From assembly GCA_046290465.1 (NCBI GenBank), contig JBKAGP010000001.1, positions 6,400,001 through 6,464,000 of the forward strand: 64,000 bases of DNA, given 5' to 3'. The position numbers and the translations under genes were made by a program. Origin of the DNA: Planctomycetota bacterium. Its GTDB lineage: Bacteria; Planctomycetota; UBA1135; UBA2386. Under the pieces are notes generated by a model, which worked only from the letters and a program-made list of their open reading frames with translations, was not told the DNA's origin and made no database searches. Below, piece by piece: positions 36,343-57,266 of this stretch (the first letter of the stretch is position 1; each line of letters starts with the position of its first letter).

Positions 36343-37323
36343 TCAGCGGTTGCCGACGGCGTTGGCTTGGATCAGGGCGACCAGGAAGTTGCCGTCGAGG
36401 CGTTGGGCGGCGAGGGCGACCACGGAGCCGGGAGTGACCTCGGCGACGTTGGCCAGGCGCACGCCGCTGGTGCGCGGGATCTGGATCGTGACCGGCAGCG
36501 CGCCCTCGAGCACGTTGACCTTGACCTCGGGGATCGGGCGCTGCAGCTCCTGAAAGCGCAGGTCGCAGCTCAGGCCGATGCGGCCGTGCGGCAGGAACGT
36601 CGCGCAGACCTCGGCGCGGTGGCCGCTCCACACCACGTCGACGACCGGATCGGCGACCACCTCGTTGGCGTCCGATCGCTGCACGGTGAAGTCCTTGACG
36701 TAGGACGTCTGGTTGACGACCGACACCTCGGCCTGCTGCAGAGGCAGCACGCTGACCAGCGGCGCGGCCAGCTTGCCGGCCCCGTCGATCTTGTCGCACG
36801 TGGCCAGGAACAGCTTGGCCGCCTCCTTGCCGAACACCGACTGGAACGTGCTCGCGCCGTCGCCCTTCGCTTCGACCTTGGTCAGGTGCTCCCTCAGGTA
36901 CTTGCGGAACTTGCCGGCCGGCACGTCGAGCAGCTGCACCTCGATCGTCAGCAGGTCCTTCTGGTGCTTCTTGGCGGCGGTCAGGATCCGCTCGACGCTG
37001 GCGATGCGCTCGGCATCGGCGAACACCGCGATGCGATGCTCGCCGATCGCCGTCAGGTCGTCGCCCTTGCGCAGCGGCGGGTCGACGAACTGCCGCAGCA
37101 TGCGCGCGGCGCGTTCGCTGGCGGTGGCGTCGAACGGCGAGCGGTCGCCCTTCAGCATCAGCTCGACGCCGGGGCTGCCGTCGCGGATCAGGTCGCGCAG
37201 GTCGAACAGCTGCAGCTGCTGGTCGGTATCGGGCACCAGCACCCGCTGGGCGGACAGCGACGGCGGCAGCATGACCGTGGCGGTCAGCAGCGCAGGAAGG
37301 AGACGAAGGCAGCGAGGGGTCAT
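36343..37323 (-). CDS. minimal secretin-like protein (N3-like domain + secretin core)
   Basis: Signal peptide; FDLRDL; IAVFAD...LTIEVQLLDV; AAPLVSVLPLQQAEVSVVNQTSY...G; IQIP...VAEVTPGSVVAL. Confidence 0.6.
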   Translation of the reverse strand: MTPRCLRLLPALLTATVMLPPSLSAQRVLVPDTDQQLQLFDLRDLIRDGSPGVELMLKGDRSPFDATASERAARMLRQFVDPPLRKGDDLTAIGEHRIAVFADAERIASVERILTAAKKHQKDLLTIEVQLLDVPAGKFRKYLREHLTKVEAKGDGASTFQSVFGKEAAKLFLATCDKIDGAGKLAAPLVSVLPLQQAEVSVVNQTSYVKDFTVQRSDANEVVADPVVDVVWSGHRAEVCATFLPHGRIGLSCDLRFQELQRPIPEVKVNVLEGALPVTIQIPRTSGVRLANVAEVTPGSVVALAAQRLDGNFLVALIQANAVGNR

Positions 37324-37817
37324 CGGGTCAGGCTCCGGCGTTCGTAGGTCTCGAGCACGATGCGCTCGGTACGCATCAGGGGTTCGTGCACGGTGACGGT
37401 GGTGGAAGCGTTCAGGCGCGGCGCGATCTCGACGAGATCGGCCGACAGGATGCGCGGCGGACGCGGTGCCGGCTCGGGCGCCGGCGTCGTCAGCAGCGCC
37501 CACGCGCACAGCCCGGCGGCGACGCCGGCGACCGCGCCGATCGCAGCCGCGCGGCGCCAGCGCCCGGGGCGCCCGGCAGCAGGCCCGGCAGCAGGCCCGG
37601 CATGGCCAGCGGCAGCATCGGCAGCAGGGCCGGTCGACCGGTCGCCCGCGGCCGCAGGGGTCACCAGCAGGCGCAGGTCCTCGCGGGTGCGCGCAAACCG
37701 GTCGAGCAGCTCCGGGTGTCGTTCGAGCAGCTCGCGCAGCGCGGGGTCGTCGAGCGGGTCGATGCGCGCGTCGAGGCAGCGGTCGAGGTGGTCGCGATAG
37801 GCGTCGTTCGGATTCAC
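37320..37817 (-). CDS. putative membrane anti-sigma factor
   Basis: Overlaps the sigma stop; one TM; AAGP-rich linker. Confidence 0.6.
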   Translation of the reverse strand: MNPNDAYRDHLDRCLDARIDPLDDPALRELLERHPELLDRFARTREDLRLLVTPAAAGDRSTGPAADAAAGHAGPAAGPAAGRPGRWRRAAAIGAVAGVAAGLCAWALLTTPAPEPAPRPPRILSADLVEIAPRLNASTTVTVHEPLMRTERIVLETYERRSLTR

Positions 37818-38326
37818 GGGTTGCCTCCTTGGTCGCTGGCGCCGTCGGCGAGGCGTCGGCGGGCGCGGTGCAGGTGGGACTTGACGGTGTTGACCGGCAG
37901 TTGGTGGCGGTCGGCGAGCTGCTTCAGGCTGAGTTCGTCGCGGTGGAAGCCGAGCAGCAGCAGGCGCTCGACGTCGGGCAGCGCCGCCAGCCGGTGCCGC
38001 AACTCGTCGCGCAGCTCGGTCGGGCACGGCACGCTCGGCGCCGGCGCGGCCTGCAGCGCGTCGCTGGTCGGCGGCTGCCGTCGGCCCCGGGCCCGGTGGT
38101 CACAGAACACCCGGAACGCGGCGCGCTGCAGCCAGGCGCGGCCGTTCTGCCGCGGGTCGAACGACGCGCGCAGCTTCCAGACCTTGGCCAGCGCCTCCTG
38201 CAGCACGTCGTCGGCGTCCGCCTCGTGGCCGCACAGCCGCCGCACGAACGCGCGCAGCGTGGCGGTCTCACGGTGCAGGAACGCGCTGAACTGCTGGTCG
38301 TCGATGGCTGCGGCGGCGCCGGACAT
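37814..38326 (-). CDS. ECF RNA polymerase sigma factor
   Basis: ADDVLQEAL.KVW..FDP...AWL; LSLKQLA...PVNTVKSHLHRARRRL. Confidence 0.92.
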   Translation of the reverse strand: MSGAAAAIDDQQFSAFLHRETATLRAFVRRLCGHEADADDVLQEALAKVWKLRASFDPRQNGRAWLQRAAFRVFCDHRARGRRQPPTSDALQAAPAPSVPCPTELRDELRHRLAALPDVERLLLLGFHRDELSLKQLADRHQLPVNTVKSHLHRARRRLADGASDQGGNP

Positions 38327-38338
38327 GGCGTTCGTCCC

Positions 38339-38366
38339 TACCGCAGCGGTGCCGCGGGAAGTTGCA
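38339..38366 (-). promoter_or_regulatory. candidate ECF autoregulatory promoter TGCAAC-16-GCGGTA
   Basis: AAC-containing -35 just upstream of the sigma start; ECF genes are commonly autoregulated. Confidence 0.4.
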
Positions 38367-38439
38367 CGCGGCCGCGATGTTTTCGGTTCGCTCACCTGGT
38401 CGCACAGCGACCCGGGGCCGCCGCCGTCGATGCTACGCG

Positions 38440-40257
38440 TCAGTAGTCGGTCGCGGCGACGTCCGTCGGGATCAGCGGGAAGAACGTGCTGTCCATCAGC
38501 GCCGACTGCGAGAACAGCTGCGCGCCGAGCAGCGCGGCGGGGATCGCCGGCAGCGTGACCACCGAGGCGCGCGTGATCGGGTCCTGCACCGCGACGTCGA
38601 GGATCGCGTAGTCGCTGAACTGCGCGCCGATGCCGAGGCTGACCAGACCCGGCGCGAAGCTCGGCTGGTTGCTGAAGCTCAGGATCACGAAGCAGAACGC
38701 GAAGCCCTGCACGTTCCCCTGGTGGCTGACCCAGTGCTGCGACTCGCCGGTCAGCCGGTCGTTCTCGGTGCGCAGCGTCGGCGTCAGCGGCTCGACCAGG
38801 TCGACCGACAGCGGGTTGCTGATGCGGGTCGGGTTCAGCAGCGTCAGCGGGTAGGTGCCGGGAGCGAGGCCCTGCGGGATCGAGACCTCGACGGTCTGGT
38901 GGTCGATGACGCGCACGAAGCCGTCGAACCACAGCCGTTGGTCGGCGCCGAGCACGAACGGTCCGAGCGCCGCCTGCTCGACGAAGCCGAGGTCGTTGCC
39001 GGTGAACACCAGCGTGTCGCCGGTCACCGTGTCGATGCTCTGCAGGTTGCCGGAGGTGACGTCGGGCGACGGCAGGATGCACTCGGTCGCCAGGTTGGCG
39101 CGCAGCGAGCCGGTGCCGGTCGGCGCCAGCGTCGCGCCGTTCGGCTGCGTCGTCACGGCGACGGTCAGGTCGACCGCCAGGCCGAAGAACGTGTTGTTCT
39201 GGCCGGCGCCGACGCCGACGTGGGCGGCGATGCTCTGCTGCACCGACAGCTCGCCGCCGTCGTTGTCTTCGACGCCGTGCAGCGCGCCGGCGACCGACGT
39301 GTAGTAGCGCCAGCCGTCGGGATCGACCGGGCCGCCGTTGGCCGCGTACGACGTCGCGAGCAGGTCCTGGATCGGCACCGCGACCGGCGGGTGGCCGGCG
39401 TCACCGGGGTCGACCCGGTTCGAGAACGTCACGTCGAGCGTCCACGCGTCGGCGCGGTCGGTCTGGCTGCGCACCGTGCCGGTCAGCTGCGCCTGGCCCT
39501 GGTCGTCCTCGACGAACCGAACGTCCGGCATCAGCAGGTAGTCGTCGGCCAGCCCGCCGATCGCCAGCGTGCGTCGGCTGCCGTTGGCGACGTGCGCCGG
39601 ATCGGGATCGGTGTGCGAGGCGCAACGGTCGGCCTGCGGCACGAAGTCGGCGCGCAGCTCTGCCGGGCCGGTCGGCGCGAACGGCTCCGAGATCGACGGC
39701 TGCGTGATCGTGACCTGCAGGTCGACCGCGAGGCCGTCGCCGACGTTCTTGTTGTTGGCGCCGGCGCCGAACTGGGCGTTGCTGGTCGCCTGCAGGTCGC
39801 AGCGCAGCCCGGCGAACGCGCGCAGGCCGGTGATCGTGCCGGTGACGCTGGTGTAGTAGACGAACGTGCTCGGGTCGACCGGGCCGGCCGGCGCGTAGGC
39901 CGAGGCCTGCAGCGTGGTGATCGGCGAGCCGGCCGGTGGGTGGGCGGGCTGTCCCGGCAGGACCTCGCCGTCGAACTGCAGTTCGACGTAGAGGTCGCGA
40001 TCGAGCGCGCCGCGGCGCTGGGCGAACACCCCGAGCCGCGCCTGGCCGTTCTGGTCGCGCGACCACTGGCCGTCCGCGAACACGACGAAGTCGTCGGCGA
40101 CGCCGGGGATCGACAGCACGAACTCGCCGGTCTCGACGGCCGACGCATCGGGCGCGGCGACCGTGGCGGTCGCGCGGGGTGGGGCTTGCGCCGGCAGGGC
40201 CGCCGCGCAGGCAGCCAGCGTCGACGCGGTCCATAGGCGAAGACGACGGACTCTCAT
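38440..40257 (-). CDS. secreted protein: duplicated ~150-aa beta domain + IPT/TIG-like domain + C-terminal domain (paralog 1)
   Basis: Signal peptide; GPVDP..YYT..G..G motif x2; LVFTGNDL; strong similarity to the neighbouring gene. Confidence 0.8.
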   Translation of the reverse strand: MRVRRLRLWTASTLAACAAALPAQAPPRATATVAAPDASAVETGEFVLSIPGVADDFVVFADGQWSRDQNGQARLGVFAQRRGALDRDLYVELQFDGEVLPGQPAHPPAGSPITTLQASAYAPAGPVDPSTFVYYTSVTGTITGLRAFAGLRCDLQATSNAQFGAGANNKNVGDGLAVDLQVTITQPSISEPFAPTGPAELRADFVPQADRCASHTDPDPAHVANGSRRTLAIGGLADDYLLMPDVRFVEDDQGQAQLTGTVRSQTDRADAWTLDVTFSNRVDPGDAGHPPVAVPIQDLLATSYAANGGPVDPDGWRYYTSVAGALHGVEDNDGGELSVQQSIAAHVGVGAGQNNTFFGLAVDLTVAVTTQPNGATLAPTGTGSLRANLATECILPSPDVTSGNLQSIDTVTGDTLVFTGNDLGFVEQAALGPFVLGADQRLWFDGFVRVIDHQTVEVSIPQGLAPGTYPLTLLNPTRISNPLSVDLVEPLTPTLRTENDRLTGESQHWVSHQGNVQGFAFCFVILSFSNQPSFAPGLVSLGIGAQFSDYAILDVAVQDPITRASVVTLPAIPAALLGAQLFSQSALMDSTFFPLIPTDVAATDY

Positions 40258-53829: not shown

Positions 53830-54831
53830 CTACTTGCGGTCGGCGACGAAGCGCGCCCACCGGGTGTGGTCGCGGCCCGGGTCCTCGCCGACCAGCTTGC
53901 GCAGCGCGCGGCGGTAGGCCTTCCGCACGAAGCGCACCTGCTGCACGTTGACGGTGGTGGCGTCGAGCACGGCGCCGTCCTGGATCACGTCGACCTTCGG
54001 ATCGGCGATGAACGCGGCCGAGGCGACCTCGACGTCCATGTCGGGCACGTAGCTGGTCTGGCGCAGCAGCGCGACGTGGCCGCGGGTGTTCTGGATCGGC
54101 GGGGCGGCGAGGCCGGTCGCGGCCTTCGGCGCGGCTGCGACCAGCAGCTCGACGGCGGCCGGATGGCCGAGTTCGCCGAACAGCTCGGCGGTGCGCGCGC
54201 GCACCACGTGCGAACGGCTGCGCAGGCCCTGGCCGAGGTAGCGCATGTCGGGGCCGCGGATGCCGGACCGCACGACGTCGGTGACGCGGCTGCGCACCAG
54301 GCGGCTGCGGTCGTGCAGCAGCGCGCGCAGCACCAGCGTGCGGTCGCCAGGCTCGCCGCGCCGCAGCAGCGCCTGCAGCGCCAGCATCCGGCGGGCGATG
54401 TTGGCGTTGGTGCGGGCTTCGCCGCGCAGCACGTGGGTCGCGTCCGGCTCGCGCGCCAGCAGTTCGACCAGCGCCGCGTGCCTGCCCATCGACAGGTGCG
54501 TGCGCGCGTGCCGCAGCAGCGCCGTGACGCGTTGCCCGGTGGCGGCCTGGTGGAGGTCGTCCTTCAGGAAGAACGGCTCGAGCCTGGCCAGGAAGTCGCC
54601 GACCGCGCGGATCTGCTGCGGCACGCCTTCGCGGTGCGGCTGGCGCCGGATCGCGGCCTCCAGGTGCTTCCACATCGCCGTCGAACGCCGCTGCGTGAAC
54701 GCCTGCCTGGCCTTCTCCAGGTGGTAGGTGGGGCGCGACAGTCGATCGCGCGAGGGTGCGCAGTCGTCGTGCTGGGCGAGTGCTGCCGGGGCGGCAGCGA
54801 GGACGAACGTCAGGAGCCGTCGGAGTCGCAT
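53830..54831 (-). CDS. exported HEAT-like protein with secretin-like hairpin insert
   Basis: Signal peptide; VRARTAELFGELGHPAAVELL; RGHVALLRQTSYVPDMDVEVASAAFIADPKVDVIQDGAVLDA. Confidence 0.75.
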   Translation of the reverse strand: MRLRRLLTFVLAAAPAALAQHDDCAPSRDRLSRPTYHLEKARQAFTQRRSTAMWKHLEAAIRRQPHREGVPQQIRAVGDFLARLEPFFLKDDLHQAATGQRVTALLRHARTHLSMGRHAALVELLAREPDATHVLRGEARTNANIARRMLALQALLRRGEPGDRTLVLRALLHDRSRLVRSRVTDVVRSGIRGPDMRYLGQGLRSRSHVVRARTAELFGELGHPAAVELLVAAAPKAATGLAAPPIQNTRGHVALLRQTSYVPDMDVEVASAAFIADPKVDVIQDGAVLDATTVNVQQVRFVRKAYRRALRKLVGEDPGRDHTRWARFVADRK

Positions 54832-55027
54832 CGTGCTCGGGGTCGGGACACAACGGTGGCGCGACGCGCCGGGGGTGCGCGCGGCCGGAAGCAGGGGGTG
54901 GCCGGAAGGTGGGGCGAGCCCGCAGGCAGCGCCCCCCGGCGCTCCTAGGAGCGCGTCCATGTAGTGGACGCGCTGCCGACCGTGATCGCGGAAGCGGCGT
55001 GTACGCGTGCGGACGGGGCTTTGCCCC

Positions 55028-56248
55028 CTAGCGCTTGCCGGTCGTGACCGGCTTCGACGGGTCGGGCAGGCTCTCGGCCCACGACGACCAGCGGCGCGGG
55101 TCGACGCCCGGGTCGCGGCCGCTCAGCAGCTTGAGCGCATCGCGGTAGGCGTAGACGATGCGGCGGATCTCGGTGACGCCGACGACGGTCGCGTCGAGCA
55201 CGGCGCCGCTCTGCAGCACGTCGACCTTCGGGTCGGCGATGAACGACGCCTGCGCGACCTCGACGTCGAAGTCGCGGATGTAGGCCTGCTGCTTGAGGAA
55301 GGCGATGTGGCCGCGGCTGGCGCCGGTGTCGTTGGCGGCGCGGCGCAGGCCGGTGGCGGCGTGCGGGCCGGCCTTGACCAGCAGATCGATCGCCGCCGCG
55401 TGGCCGAGCTGGCCCATCGCCTCGGCGGTGCGCACGCGCACCTTGGCGTTGGAGTGGCCGAGGCCGCCGGCCATGTAGGTGACGGCGTCGGCGGTGATCG
55501 CCGGCTTGCCGATCTCGGCGGCGGCAGCGCGCACCTTCTTGTTGCGGTCGAGCACCGTCGTGCGCAGCACGAACAGGTCGTTGCCGTTGGTCTTGCGGCG
55601 CTGCAGCGCCGACAGCGCCGCGATCCGCTGGCGGAAGTTGCCGTTGCGGCGCGCGTGCGTGCGCAGCAGCTGGTCGGCGTTGGGTTCGCGCACCATCAGC
55701 TCCTCGATCGCGGCGAGCTTGCCGGGCTTGGTGGCGGCGTGGCACATGTTCAGCATCGACTTGATGCGCTTCGAAGCCGGCGCCTGGCGCACCGAGCGCG
55801 GCAGCAGTTCGGGTTCGAGCTGGGCCAGGAAGTCGCGCAGGCGGCGTTCGACCGCGGTCGGCTGGCAGGTCTTCTCGTTGGCGGGCAGCGCCGCGATCGC
55901 CTTGTCGAGATGCCGCCACATCTCCGGCTCGAGGCCGTAGTCGCGCGCGATCTGCGCGAGGTTGAGGTGGGCGAAGGCGCTGTCGCCGCTGGCCTTGGCC
56001 TTCTCCTTGAGGGCGGTCTGCAGGTCCCGCTGGTCGCGCAGGCGTTCGACGTCCTTCTCGGCGACGGTGACGGTGCCGTCGTGCGTCTCGACCTGCCAGG
56101 TCTCGCCGCGCAGCCGCGCCTCGCCGACCAGCACGCGTCCGTCCTTCAGCCGCAGCTCCTTGATCCCCTGGGCCGCGGTAGGGACCGCCAGCGCCAGTGC
56201 GGCGCCGAGCGTCAGCAGGCGAACGGAAACGGAAAGGCGTGGTGCCAT
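55028..56248 (-). CDS. exported HEAT-like protein with secretin-like hairpin insert (paralog)
   Basis: Signal peptide; LKDGRVLVG small beta domain; VRVRTAEAMGQLGH; RGHIAFLKQQAYIRDFDVEVAQASFIADPKVDVLQSGAVLDA. Confidence 0.78.
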   Translation of the reverse strand: MAPRLSVSVRLLTLGAALALAVPTAAQGIKELRLKDGRVLVGEARLRGETWQVETHDGTVTVAEKDVERLRDQRDLQTALKEKAKASGDSAFAHLNLAQIARDYGLEPEMWRHLDKAIAALPANEKTCQPTAVERRLRDFLAQLEPELLPRSVRQAPASKRIKSMLNMCHAATKPGKLAAIEELMVREPNADQLLRTHARRNGNFRQRIAALSALQRRKTNGNDLFVLRTTVLDRNKKVRAAAAEIGKPAITADAVTYMAGGLGHSNAKVRVRTAEAMGQLGHAAAIDLLVKAGPHAATGLRRAANDTGASRGHIAFLKQQAYIRDFDVEVAQASFIADPKVDVLQSGAVLDATVVGVTEIRRIVYAYRDALKLLSGRDPGVDPRRWSSWAESLPDPSKPVTTGKR

Positions 56249-56321: not shown

Positions 56322-57266
56322 ATGAACCGTACCACCGCGAGTGTCCTGTTGTGCCTCACGTCCCTGATCGGGACCGCGGCCGCGCAGCAGCCGGCGCCGT
56401 CGTCCGCCAAGAAGTCGCAAGACACTCCTGTGTCGCGACTTGTGGCGTCCATGGCGAAGGCCGAGCGGGTCCTGACGAGCCTCTCGATGACGATGAGGAC
56501 GAGCGGCAGGCTGCCGGGTGGACCGCCGGTGACCACGCGCGGCGAACTGCGTGTCCTGCGTGGGACACAGCCGAACGAACCGGTGCGGCGCTTCAGCCGC
56601 GTCGAGTATGCGTTCGGCGAAGGGCTGCGCGGACGGCTCGAGTCGGCCGAGACTGCCGAGGGCATCCTGCTGTTCGAGGAGGATCCGGCGTTCGGCGCGG
56701 TGTTCCTGCGCATCGAGCCGGCGATCGTCAAGGACCTGGAATGGGCCGGCACGGTGCTCGATCGCAGCGACCTGCCGGGCATGCTCGACGCGCGGGCGCG
56801 GGCGCCGCTCGGCAGTGGCTTGCTCGCGGACATGACCCGCACGTTCGACCTGAAGGTCGACGAGCGCACCCGGAACGGCGAGCACGAGGGCACCTGGGTC
56901 GTCGGCACCCGCAAGGCCGGCCTCGACGACCAGGACCCGGACCTGCCGCTCTTCGACGCCGTCGAGGTGTTCGTGCGCGGCAAGGATCAGGCGCTGCTGC
57001 TGGCGCGCTACAAGGTCGGCGACGAGGTCGTGCAGCAGATCGAGGTCGAACGGCTCGAGGTCGGCGTTCGGCTCGACGCCGACGCGTTCGTCGTCGACGG
57101 CCACGGCGTTCGCATCCGCAACGTGCAGGACTACGCCCCGATGTGGGAGCAGATCGAACAGGCGGTCCAGCGCGCCGAGGAGAAGGGCGCCGAACAGGGC
57201 ATCCTGCGCCCGAGCCGCCGCGACCAGCCCAAGAAGAACGACCAGAAACCAGGCGACGGCAAGTAA
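56322..57266 (+). CDS. exported LolA-fold-like protein (tentative)
   Basis: Signal peptide; beta-rich, ending QIEVERLEVGVRLDADAF, like the LolA-family C-terminus. Confidence 0.5.
   Translation: MNRTTASVLLCLTSLIGTAAAQQPAPSSAKKSQDTPVSRLVASMAKAERVLTSLSMTMRTSGRLPGGPPVTTRGELRVLRGTQPNEPVRRFSRVEYAFGEGLRGRLESAETAEGILLFEEDPAFGAVFLRIEPAIVKDLEWAGTVLDRSDLPGMLDARARAPLGSGLLADMTRTFDLKVDERTRNGEHEGTWVVGTRKAGLDDQDPDLPLFDAVEVFVRGKDQALLLARYKVGDEVVQQIEVERLEVGVRLDADAFVVDGHGVRIRNVQDYAPMWEQIEQAVQRAEEKGAEQGILRPSRRDQPKKNDQKPGDGK

Follow-up and report, generated by a model that had tools for sequence, protein, structure and literature searches.

Tandem HEAT-like paralogues and their surroundings

The window analysed here is a stretch of 64,000 nucleotides from the genome of an uncultured member of the Planctomycetota, in which two neighbouring genes encode the paralogous proteins A and B. 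The following features were assigned to the locus and its immediate surroundings.

53830-54831, minus strand: paralogue A, 333 aa, an exported HEAT-like solenoid with a copy of a secretin Gate 1 and without the N-terminal beta domain of B
53953-54084, minus strand: secretin-like hairpin of A (residues 250-293), consisting of barrel strand, Gate 1 and barrel strand
54945-55032, strand not assigned: REP-like, hairpin-forming intergenic repeat between B and A
55028-56248, minus strand: paralogue B, 406 aa, a conserved family member with signal peptide, small beta domain, helical solenoid, Gate-1 copy and two closing helices
55184-55315, minus strand: secretin-like hairpin of B (residues 312-355), with Gate 1 proper at about 55205-55294
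56036-56164, minus strand: five-stranded N-terminal beta domain predicted in the model of B (residues 29-71), for which a Pfam search gave no family name
56322-57266, plus strand: divergent, exported LolA-fold-like protein, 314 aa, a conserved neighbour in the family of the source genome with a putative role in the system

Proteins A and B are 44% identical over 297 aa. Both start, as judged by eye, with a signal-peptide-like stretch, and in neither is this followed by the lipobox cysteine that would mark a pilotin. A Pfam search detected no PF00263 in A or B, so that by domain content they are not secretins. Exported HEAT-like proteins had been predicted at this locus; the signal-like starts and a solenoid fold agree with that description, while the HEAT_2 (PF13646) scores of A (24.6 bits) and B (27.4 bits) lie just under the curated cut-off of 27.7. 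Many homologues of B do carry PF13646, and the family profile also matches alphaRep structures. The model of B (pLDDT 86.7) consists of stacked helices, as in an alpha-solenoid, and its top matches in a structure comparison were solenoids (Z 8-9.7, rmsd 4-7.5), none of them outstanding. An N0-like fold was absent among the structural matches listed, in which the N-terminal beta domain was barely probed. Foldseek with B gave nothing below E 0.001, and none of the solved structures matched the insert described below.

Relatives of B bear the name Planctomycetota protein or hypothetical protein. Named genomes contributed 79 loci, all of them from metagenome assemblies and nearly all labelled Planctomycetota or one of its subgroups. 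A search of 1.84 billion representatives with a wide HEAT alignment returned so many long generic HEAT proteins that it was uninformative. Short tandem paralogues resembling A are also present in genomes G030, G031 and G032. In A, the first gate strand carries a proline where B and the secretin Sec1 (see below) have arginine. Four of the eight strain differences listed for A alter a residue, and the hairpin has none; constraint on A may be looser. Only short pieces (share 0.07) were present in one metatranscriptome, which carries no weight on expression. The REP-like repeat, with 156 copies of at least 60 bp in the genome, probably lies outside the system.

The insert is a near-copy of Gate 1 of a lipoprotein secretin

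In both paralogues, the helical repeats are interrupted by an insert of 44 residues. The original prediction that this motif resembles a secretin gate hairpin was confirmed in both proteins, and its source could be traced to one secretin of the same genome.

G000:C1:1702697-1705420: Sec1, a lipoprotein secretin, the model for the copied hairpin, 4.7 Mb from A and B

The insert corresponds to Gate 1 of Sec1 together with both flanking strands of the inner barrel. Identity to Sec1 was 76% over 41 residues for the hairpin of B and 67% over 49 aa for that of A (0.88 over the 26-residue gate core), whereas the motif matched Sec2, the neighbour of Sec1, at 34% over 65. A profile-profile comparison with Sec1 aligned 49 columns at E 1.7e-20. 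When a profile of the two motif sequences was run against the 51,421 open reading frames of the genome, Sec1 was found at E 1e-23 and Sec2 at 2e-8, in line with the expectation that such a profile would find secretins as well as HEAT proteins. The planctomycete secretin string named in the prediction is present in the source genome. Seven PF00263 secretins are encoded there (Sec1 with 84 and Sec2 with 85.5 bits), and none of the other five was among the significant matches of the motif profile in these reading frames. Conversely, a profile built from 39 Sec1 proteins with no HEAT sequences recovered A and B at about 1e-14. Residues 310-356 of B, compared with 186 candidate proteins of 712-2030 aa, gave 176 matches, and all 120 among the matches listed carry PF00263.

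The model of Sec1 (pLDDT 68.8) has a secretin-like fold, in which the motif forms exactly one long hairpin with strands 250-269 and 272-294. Gate 1 of the f1 phage secretin pIV is bounded by Gly267 and Gly297, and its main chain bonds with Gate 2 of the next subunit (PMC8563730). By alignment and the published pIV numbering, the motif maps to this Gate 1, from one hinge position to the other. Every sequence in the HEAT, Sec1 and Sec2 alignments keeps the second hinge glycine; the first is replaced in this lineage, mostly by asparagine in the secretins. The insert is thus a hairpin that lies between the first two inner-barrel strands and ends at the hinge glycine, as Gate 1 does in secretins. 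It is homologous to Gate 1 of secretins with PF00263, such as f1 pIV, GspD and PilQ, including the stem strands and the invariant second hinge glycine, and differs from them in being set in a helical solenoid with no other part of a secretin. We conclude that the HEAT-like paralogues carry a true near-copy of a secretin Gate 1, far above chance.

A second protein in the window had originally been taken as the counterpart of the motif.

36343-37320, minus strand: exported mini-secretin of 325 aa without the membrane lip, whose Gate 1, at about 36610-36735, has diverged

This protein is related and was rejected as the model of the copy: it has no PF00263 and no membrane-lip segments, and the motif profile matched it at only 1e-4. 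At 36343-38500 of the window, it directly follows genes for an ECF sigma factor and a probable anti-sigma factor. The genome has at least six such mini-secretins, five further ones being at C1 1161629, 4692033, 5177670, 5764720 and 5788285; several have diverged Gate-1 segments, and some are internally duplicated.

In the model the insert is exposed, and no part of the protein is better conserved

Column conservation among 120 close relatives was 0.86 in the insert, 0.70 in the solenoid and 0.64 in the N-terminal part. In the model of B, residues 300-355 or so form the sole long low-confidence part of the mature protein, with a pLDDT of about 48-55 in the hairpin. The insert has base strands at 313-318 and 348-353 and is flanked by helices at 223-297 and 356-392. 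The insert is therefore predicted to be exposed, poorly ordered alone and outside the helical core, as had been anticipated, and it probably folds on a partner.

Sec2 and Sec1 bracket an ExbB-ExbD motor

The genes for Sec1 and Sec2 lie in one operon, together with two TPR-like, one ExbB/TolQ and two ExbD/TolR genes that they bracket.

G000:C1:1692630-1705420 (loci L001, L002): operon of Sec2, TPR, TPR, ExbB, ExbD, ExbD, Sec1 and HAD hydrolase, kept in most of 30 fetched loci

Across these 30 loci, an ExbB-like cluster was present in 28, and ExbD-like clusters in 28 and 27. Sec1 and Sec2 each begin, as judged by eye, with a lipobox-like stretch. The HEAT genes lie outside this operon.

The gene divergent from the pair had been described as LolA-like. 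It has no Pfam or NCBIfam match, and its look-alikes in a feature comparison were DUF2092, MucB/RseB and 'LolA family protein' (0.92-0.93), which leaves the assignment as a supported lead. The HEAT gene has such a divergent LolA-fold-like neighbour in the family of the source genome and in two others; this neighbour is specific to some families.

In 18 of 38 loci of other genomes (L031-L049, L106, L114, L167, L168), the HEAT gene is preceded by comEC in the same orientation, often accompanied by divergent coaD and ridA genes. A single-protein search had suggested that comEC was missing from the source genome; a family search located it, 122 kb from the HEAT genes. Since the two are that far apart there, we regard the linkage as a lead only, possibly reflecting either a tie to DNA uptake or old synteny.

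The gate copy tracks the secretin of its own genome

We compared copy and secretins in 32 genomes from which all three genes were fetched, with one paralogue taken per genome. These triads came from the source genome and from 31 of 40 picked genomes; two of the others had no HEAT match, one had a single secretin and six were not fetched. The HEAT residue was the same as that of either secretin at a frequency of 0.68 for the secretins of its own genome, 0.63 for those of other genomes of the family and 0.60 for those of other families. In a within-family permutation test, HEAT proteins were associated with their own secretins at p 5e-5, a value that overstates significance since kin are not independent; applied to Sec1 against Sec2, the test returned p 0.42.

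The set was then widened with ten genomes from other classes, to 44 carriers from 42 genomes. Here, identity over Gate 1 was 0.70 to the own secretin versus 0.52 to those of other families, and the excess was found in both strands, on both faces and at the tip. The stem strands had no excess (0.32 vs 0.30 and 0.55 vs 0.55). Tracking is therefore confined to the gate, the excess of similarity ending at the hinge positions, and the flat stem strands serve as an internal control that argues against an excess driven by composition. The nearest gate was that of an own-lineage secretin for 30 of 45 carriers and another for the remaining 15.

The length of the gate was matched as well. In all of 16 carriers, which were hand-picked to span the length classes and are illustrations rather than a sample, the gate (22, 26 or 30 residues) had the same length as in the own secretin that it matched best, and an own secretin ranked first or tied for first. 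The copy of G143 has the tip AQFQAV in common with its Sec1 and is identical to it at 0.96 over the gate core, and in G488, G493, G311, G271 and G395 a tip that is four residues longer is common to the copy and its own Sec1. The gates of G300 are four residues shorter, and of its two tandem HEAT paralogues one is nearest each secretin (0.77, 0.82); G299 and G371 likewise have one paralogue per secretin (0.85-0.88). In the source genome, A and B both match Sec1. After a single split in a common ancestor, the copy would be expected at the same distance from every present-day secretin, which was not observed.

The scaffolds of distant carriers matched a hairpin-free HEAT profile at E 5e-17 to 0.65, matches which generic HEAT repeats could also give and which do not prove a single origin of the carriers. 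Tandem arrays of two or three HEAT paralogues were seen in G299, G371, G469 and G384 (L158, L160, L161, L162). In three of these four genomes one copy has a stop right at the tip of the hairpin, for which either read-through or decay is conceivable.

Selection acts on the protein

Where copy and secretin have the same residue, the codons were identical between the copy and Sec1 in 746 of 1206 cases, with 684 expected from codon use (z 4.0), and between the copy and Sec2 in 599 of 1060, with 595 expected. In G493, 8 of 33 identical residues had identical codons (11.3 expected). Silent sites are thus at or near the codon-usage background, and selection acts on the protein. Recent or ongoing gene conversion as the main cause of the resemblance was rejected on these counts. 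Rare old conversion may have supplied the shared indels, and the small silent excess with Sec1 leaves room for some conversion.

Distribution of the carriers and a second type of mimic

All 221 genomes searched in the class matched the profile of B, where a match may be a secretin. Of 40 genomes picked across families, each gave one or more secretin matches, and 38 gave a HEAT-type match as well. Fifteen genomes from other lineages were more varied: HEAT carriers occurred in five, a small non-HEAT carrier in one, nothing beyond mini-secretin-like matches in one and nothing beyond the secretin in eight, with three weak matches set aside. Several of the secretin-only genomes are 99-100% complete, which indicates that the HEAT partner can be dispensable. 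In G259 (L246), a small exported protein of less than 190 aa that is not HEAT-like has a copy of Gate 1 which matches the short-gated secretin of that genome.

In families f13, f75 and f85, a search with one protein query found no HEAT-type carrier in any of five genomes, and a search of 12 genomes of f13, f75 or f85 type with their own gate profile found none either; neither result implies absence. In 10 of 12 genomes of f13, f75, f85, f87 and f88, families which from their motifs we take to be Planctomycetia-like, we found instead a different protein that carries a different two-strand piece of the gate.

L226:1381-2703 and L269-L278: second mimic family, open frames of about 500 aa in f13 and about 1350 aa in f75 and f85

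This protein has no Pfam match. Its C-terminal end corresponds to the second Gate-1 strand, two barrel strands and the first Gate-2 strand. The overlap between the two types of mimic is limited to the second gate strand, the hinge glycine and the barrel strand that follows. It tracked its secretin more weakly (0.56 own vs 0.51 other in nine genomes), and the own secretin was top or tied in only four of the nine.

Discussion

Co-evolution of the gate copy with the secretin of the same genome speaks for a physical setting common to both. Since strands, faces, tip and length are matched and the stems are free, the hairpin would be flanked in the same manner as native Gate 1. We tentatively propose, with not quite even confidence, that the HEAT-like proteins are periplasmic spare staves for the gate of the machine built from twin lipoprotein secretins and ExbB-ExbD, where they would act as a removable plug or lock; it is binding to the gate that we infer. 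The hairpin would fold only on taking up a Gate-1 position in the gate sheet, which it could enter either by swapping with a native Gate 1 or by adding itself as one more stave between the Gate-1 tips. In either case the solenoid would hang in the periplasmic vestibule, where the ends of the stem emerge, and lock a resting or newly built pore until it is displaced once the proton-driven motor engages. With two secretins whose gates have diverged, each may have its own paralogue. Dedicated plugs are already known for a secretin (PMC13392014), and another lineage has a second scaffold with a different two-strand piece of this sheet; both speak for this reading. Against it stand the 15 carriers whose nearest gate is not that of an own-lineage secretin, the eight genomes of other lineages in which the motif was seen in the secretin alone, the small silent excess with Sec1 and the location of the HEAT genes outside the operon. 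Tracking would also look alike if a third protein read the whole hairpin. It also leaves unexplained the route by which a solenoid of 40 kDa would reach the lumen of a closed ring.

It is possible, if rather unlikely, that a third component, such as a periplasmic domain of ExbD, one of the two TPR proteins of the operon or a chaperone, reads Gate 1 as a 'box' by which it pulls or holds, and that the HEAT proteins are decoys, adaptors or cargo. Colicins copy the TonB box in this manner, and here the secretins bracket an ExbB-ExbD-ExbD motor in nearly all loci fetched. Side chains on both strands are tracked, as they would be if the whole hairpin were read, and the second gate strand, hinge glycine and next barrel strand that both mimics have in common could be a shared signal. 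A surface reader, however, usually constrains one face or strand, whereas in our data both faces and the exact length are matched, and the strand common to both mimics tracks no better than the first strand.

We consider it improbable that the proteins are assembly chaperones that act by donor-strand capping, the copy pairing in the periplasm with the Gate-2 edge that is still unpaired in secretin monomers and open arcs, and blocking premature oligomerisation until the true neighbour replaces it. Gate 1 does normally pair with Gate 2 of the neighbour, as described for pIV (PMC8563730). The insert alone is disordered in the model of B, the two secretins start with lipobox-like stretches, and in three families the HEAT gene has a divergent LolA-fold-like neighbour, as might suit such a role. 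A cap needs a single matched edge, however, and we observed tracking in both strands and the tip and none in the stem strand that would extend the capped edge; secretins of the same type also occur in complete genomes in which no carrier was detected.

Repeated gene conversion from secretin genes, which would maintain the resemblance with no shared interface, is very improbable. The shared four-residue indels arise most easily by occasional copying, and there is the small silent excess with Sec1. Sec2 has no such excess, however, codon identity in G493 is below expectation, the similarity stops at the hinge positions, and conservation within the family is highest in the insert. We give least credence of all to the earlier suggestion of a self-assembling barrel, in which the HEAT proteins form a ring of their own and the hairpins build a beta-barrel independent of the secretin: the hairpin is long, alternates between polar and non-polar residues as read from its sequence and is unfolded in the monomer model, but the tracking of the own secretin and the presence of one paralogue per secretin would be left unexplained.

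Returning to spare gate staves, known systems close to them include SlkA and SlkB, periplasmic plugs at the gate of the Pseudomonas aeruginosa secretin PilQ. According to their authors' proposal they give way once the inner-membrane complex docks, and unrelated plugs are anticipated in other systems (PMC13392014). A and B resemble them as tandem periplasmic paralogues with a proposed place at a secretin gate and may work alike. Slk homologues are mainly gamma-proteobacterial, and the main text of that report contains neither 'hairpin' nor 'mimic' (PMC13392014). A and B differ in carrying a co-evolving copy of the gate, a distinction that is drawn from the description of the Slk proteins. BfpG is a non-lipidated periplasmic partner that has an N0-like fold, pairs by a strand with the lipoprotein secretin BfpB and promotes its assembly (PMC12531336). 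A and B would be alike, under the proposal above, as non-lipidated periplasmic proteins that pair by strands with a lipoprotein secretin and resemble part of it; BfpG, however, is described there as binding outside the N3 ring at 17:17, is encoded in the pilus system and has no gate copy (PMC12531336). Pilotins and TsaP are dedicated secretin accessories as well, and pilotins are lipoproteins that grip the C-terminal S domain from outside, whereas A and B lack a lipobox cysteine and carry a piece of the lumen (PMC12531336).

The alpha-solenoid predicted for B has a counterpart among accessory proteins, and parallels to strand donation exist in other machines. Some dedicated secretin accessories are helical-repeat proteins. 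In donor-strand complementation by PapD and FimC, the chaperone supplies a strand to its client, and these chaperones and the TonB-box mimicry of colicins are alike in that a partner supplies or imitates a strand of a client or machine. They belong to other machines, and neither is a chromosomal self-copy that tracks its model paralogue by paralogue. In the titles and abstracts found, no description of a gate-copying secretin partner or of this HEAT family was met, subscription papers and supplements being mostly outside this scope; the available parts of PMC3422733 and PMC5287468 contain nothing on the HEAT family.

Secretins have been treated as homo-oligomers whose partners bind outside the barrel or, in the case of Slk, plug the lumen with an unrelated protein. 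A broader view, which we find possible but somewhat unlikely, is that Planctomycetota have a motor-coupled secretin with interchangeable two-strand staves that attach a plug, a regulator or a handle for cargo: separate periplasmic proteins, each with a self-copy of part of the gate sheet, would slot into the ring of a chosen secretin paralogue, and the machine could be the uptake route at crateriform structures. The route of macromolecule uptake in planctomycetes is described as uncharacterised in two reports (PMC5394234, PMC11131199), and the secretin-ExbBD machine is a candidate for it, the link to crateriform structures being speculation.

The matched copy would also mark Gate 1 of this secretin family as a recognition surface, and the swap or deletion of 30 residues would be a precise handle on the secretin-ExbBD machine. 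The gate copy points to an undescribed way of plugging or building secretin channels. A chromosomal copy of the gate that is matched in sequence and length, paralogue by paralogue and across a phylum, would represent a new principle of channel control.
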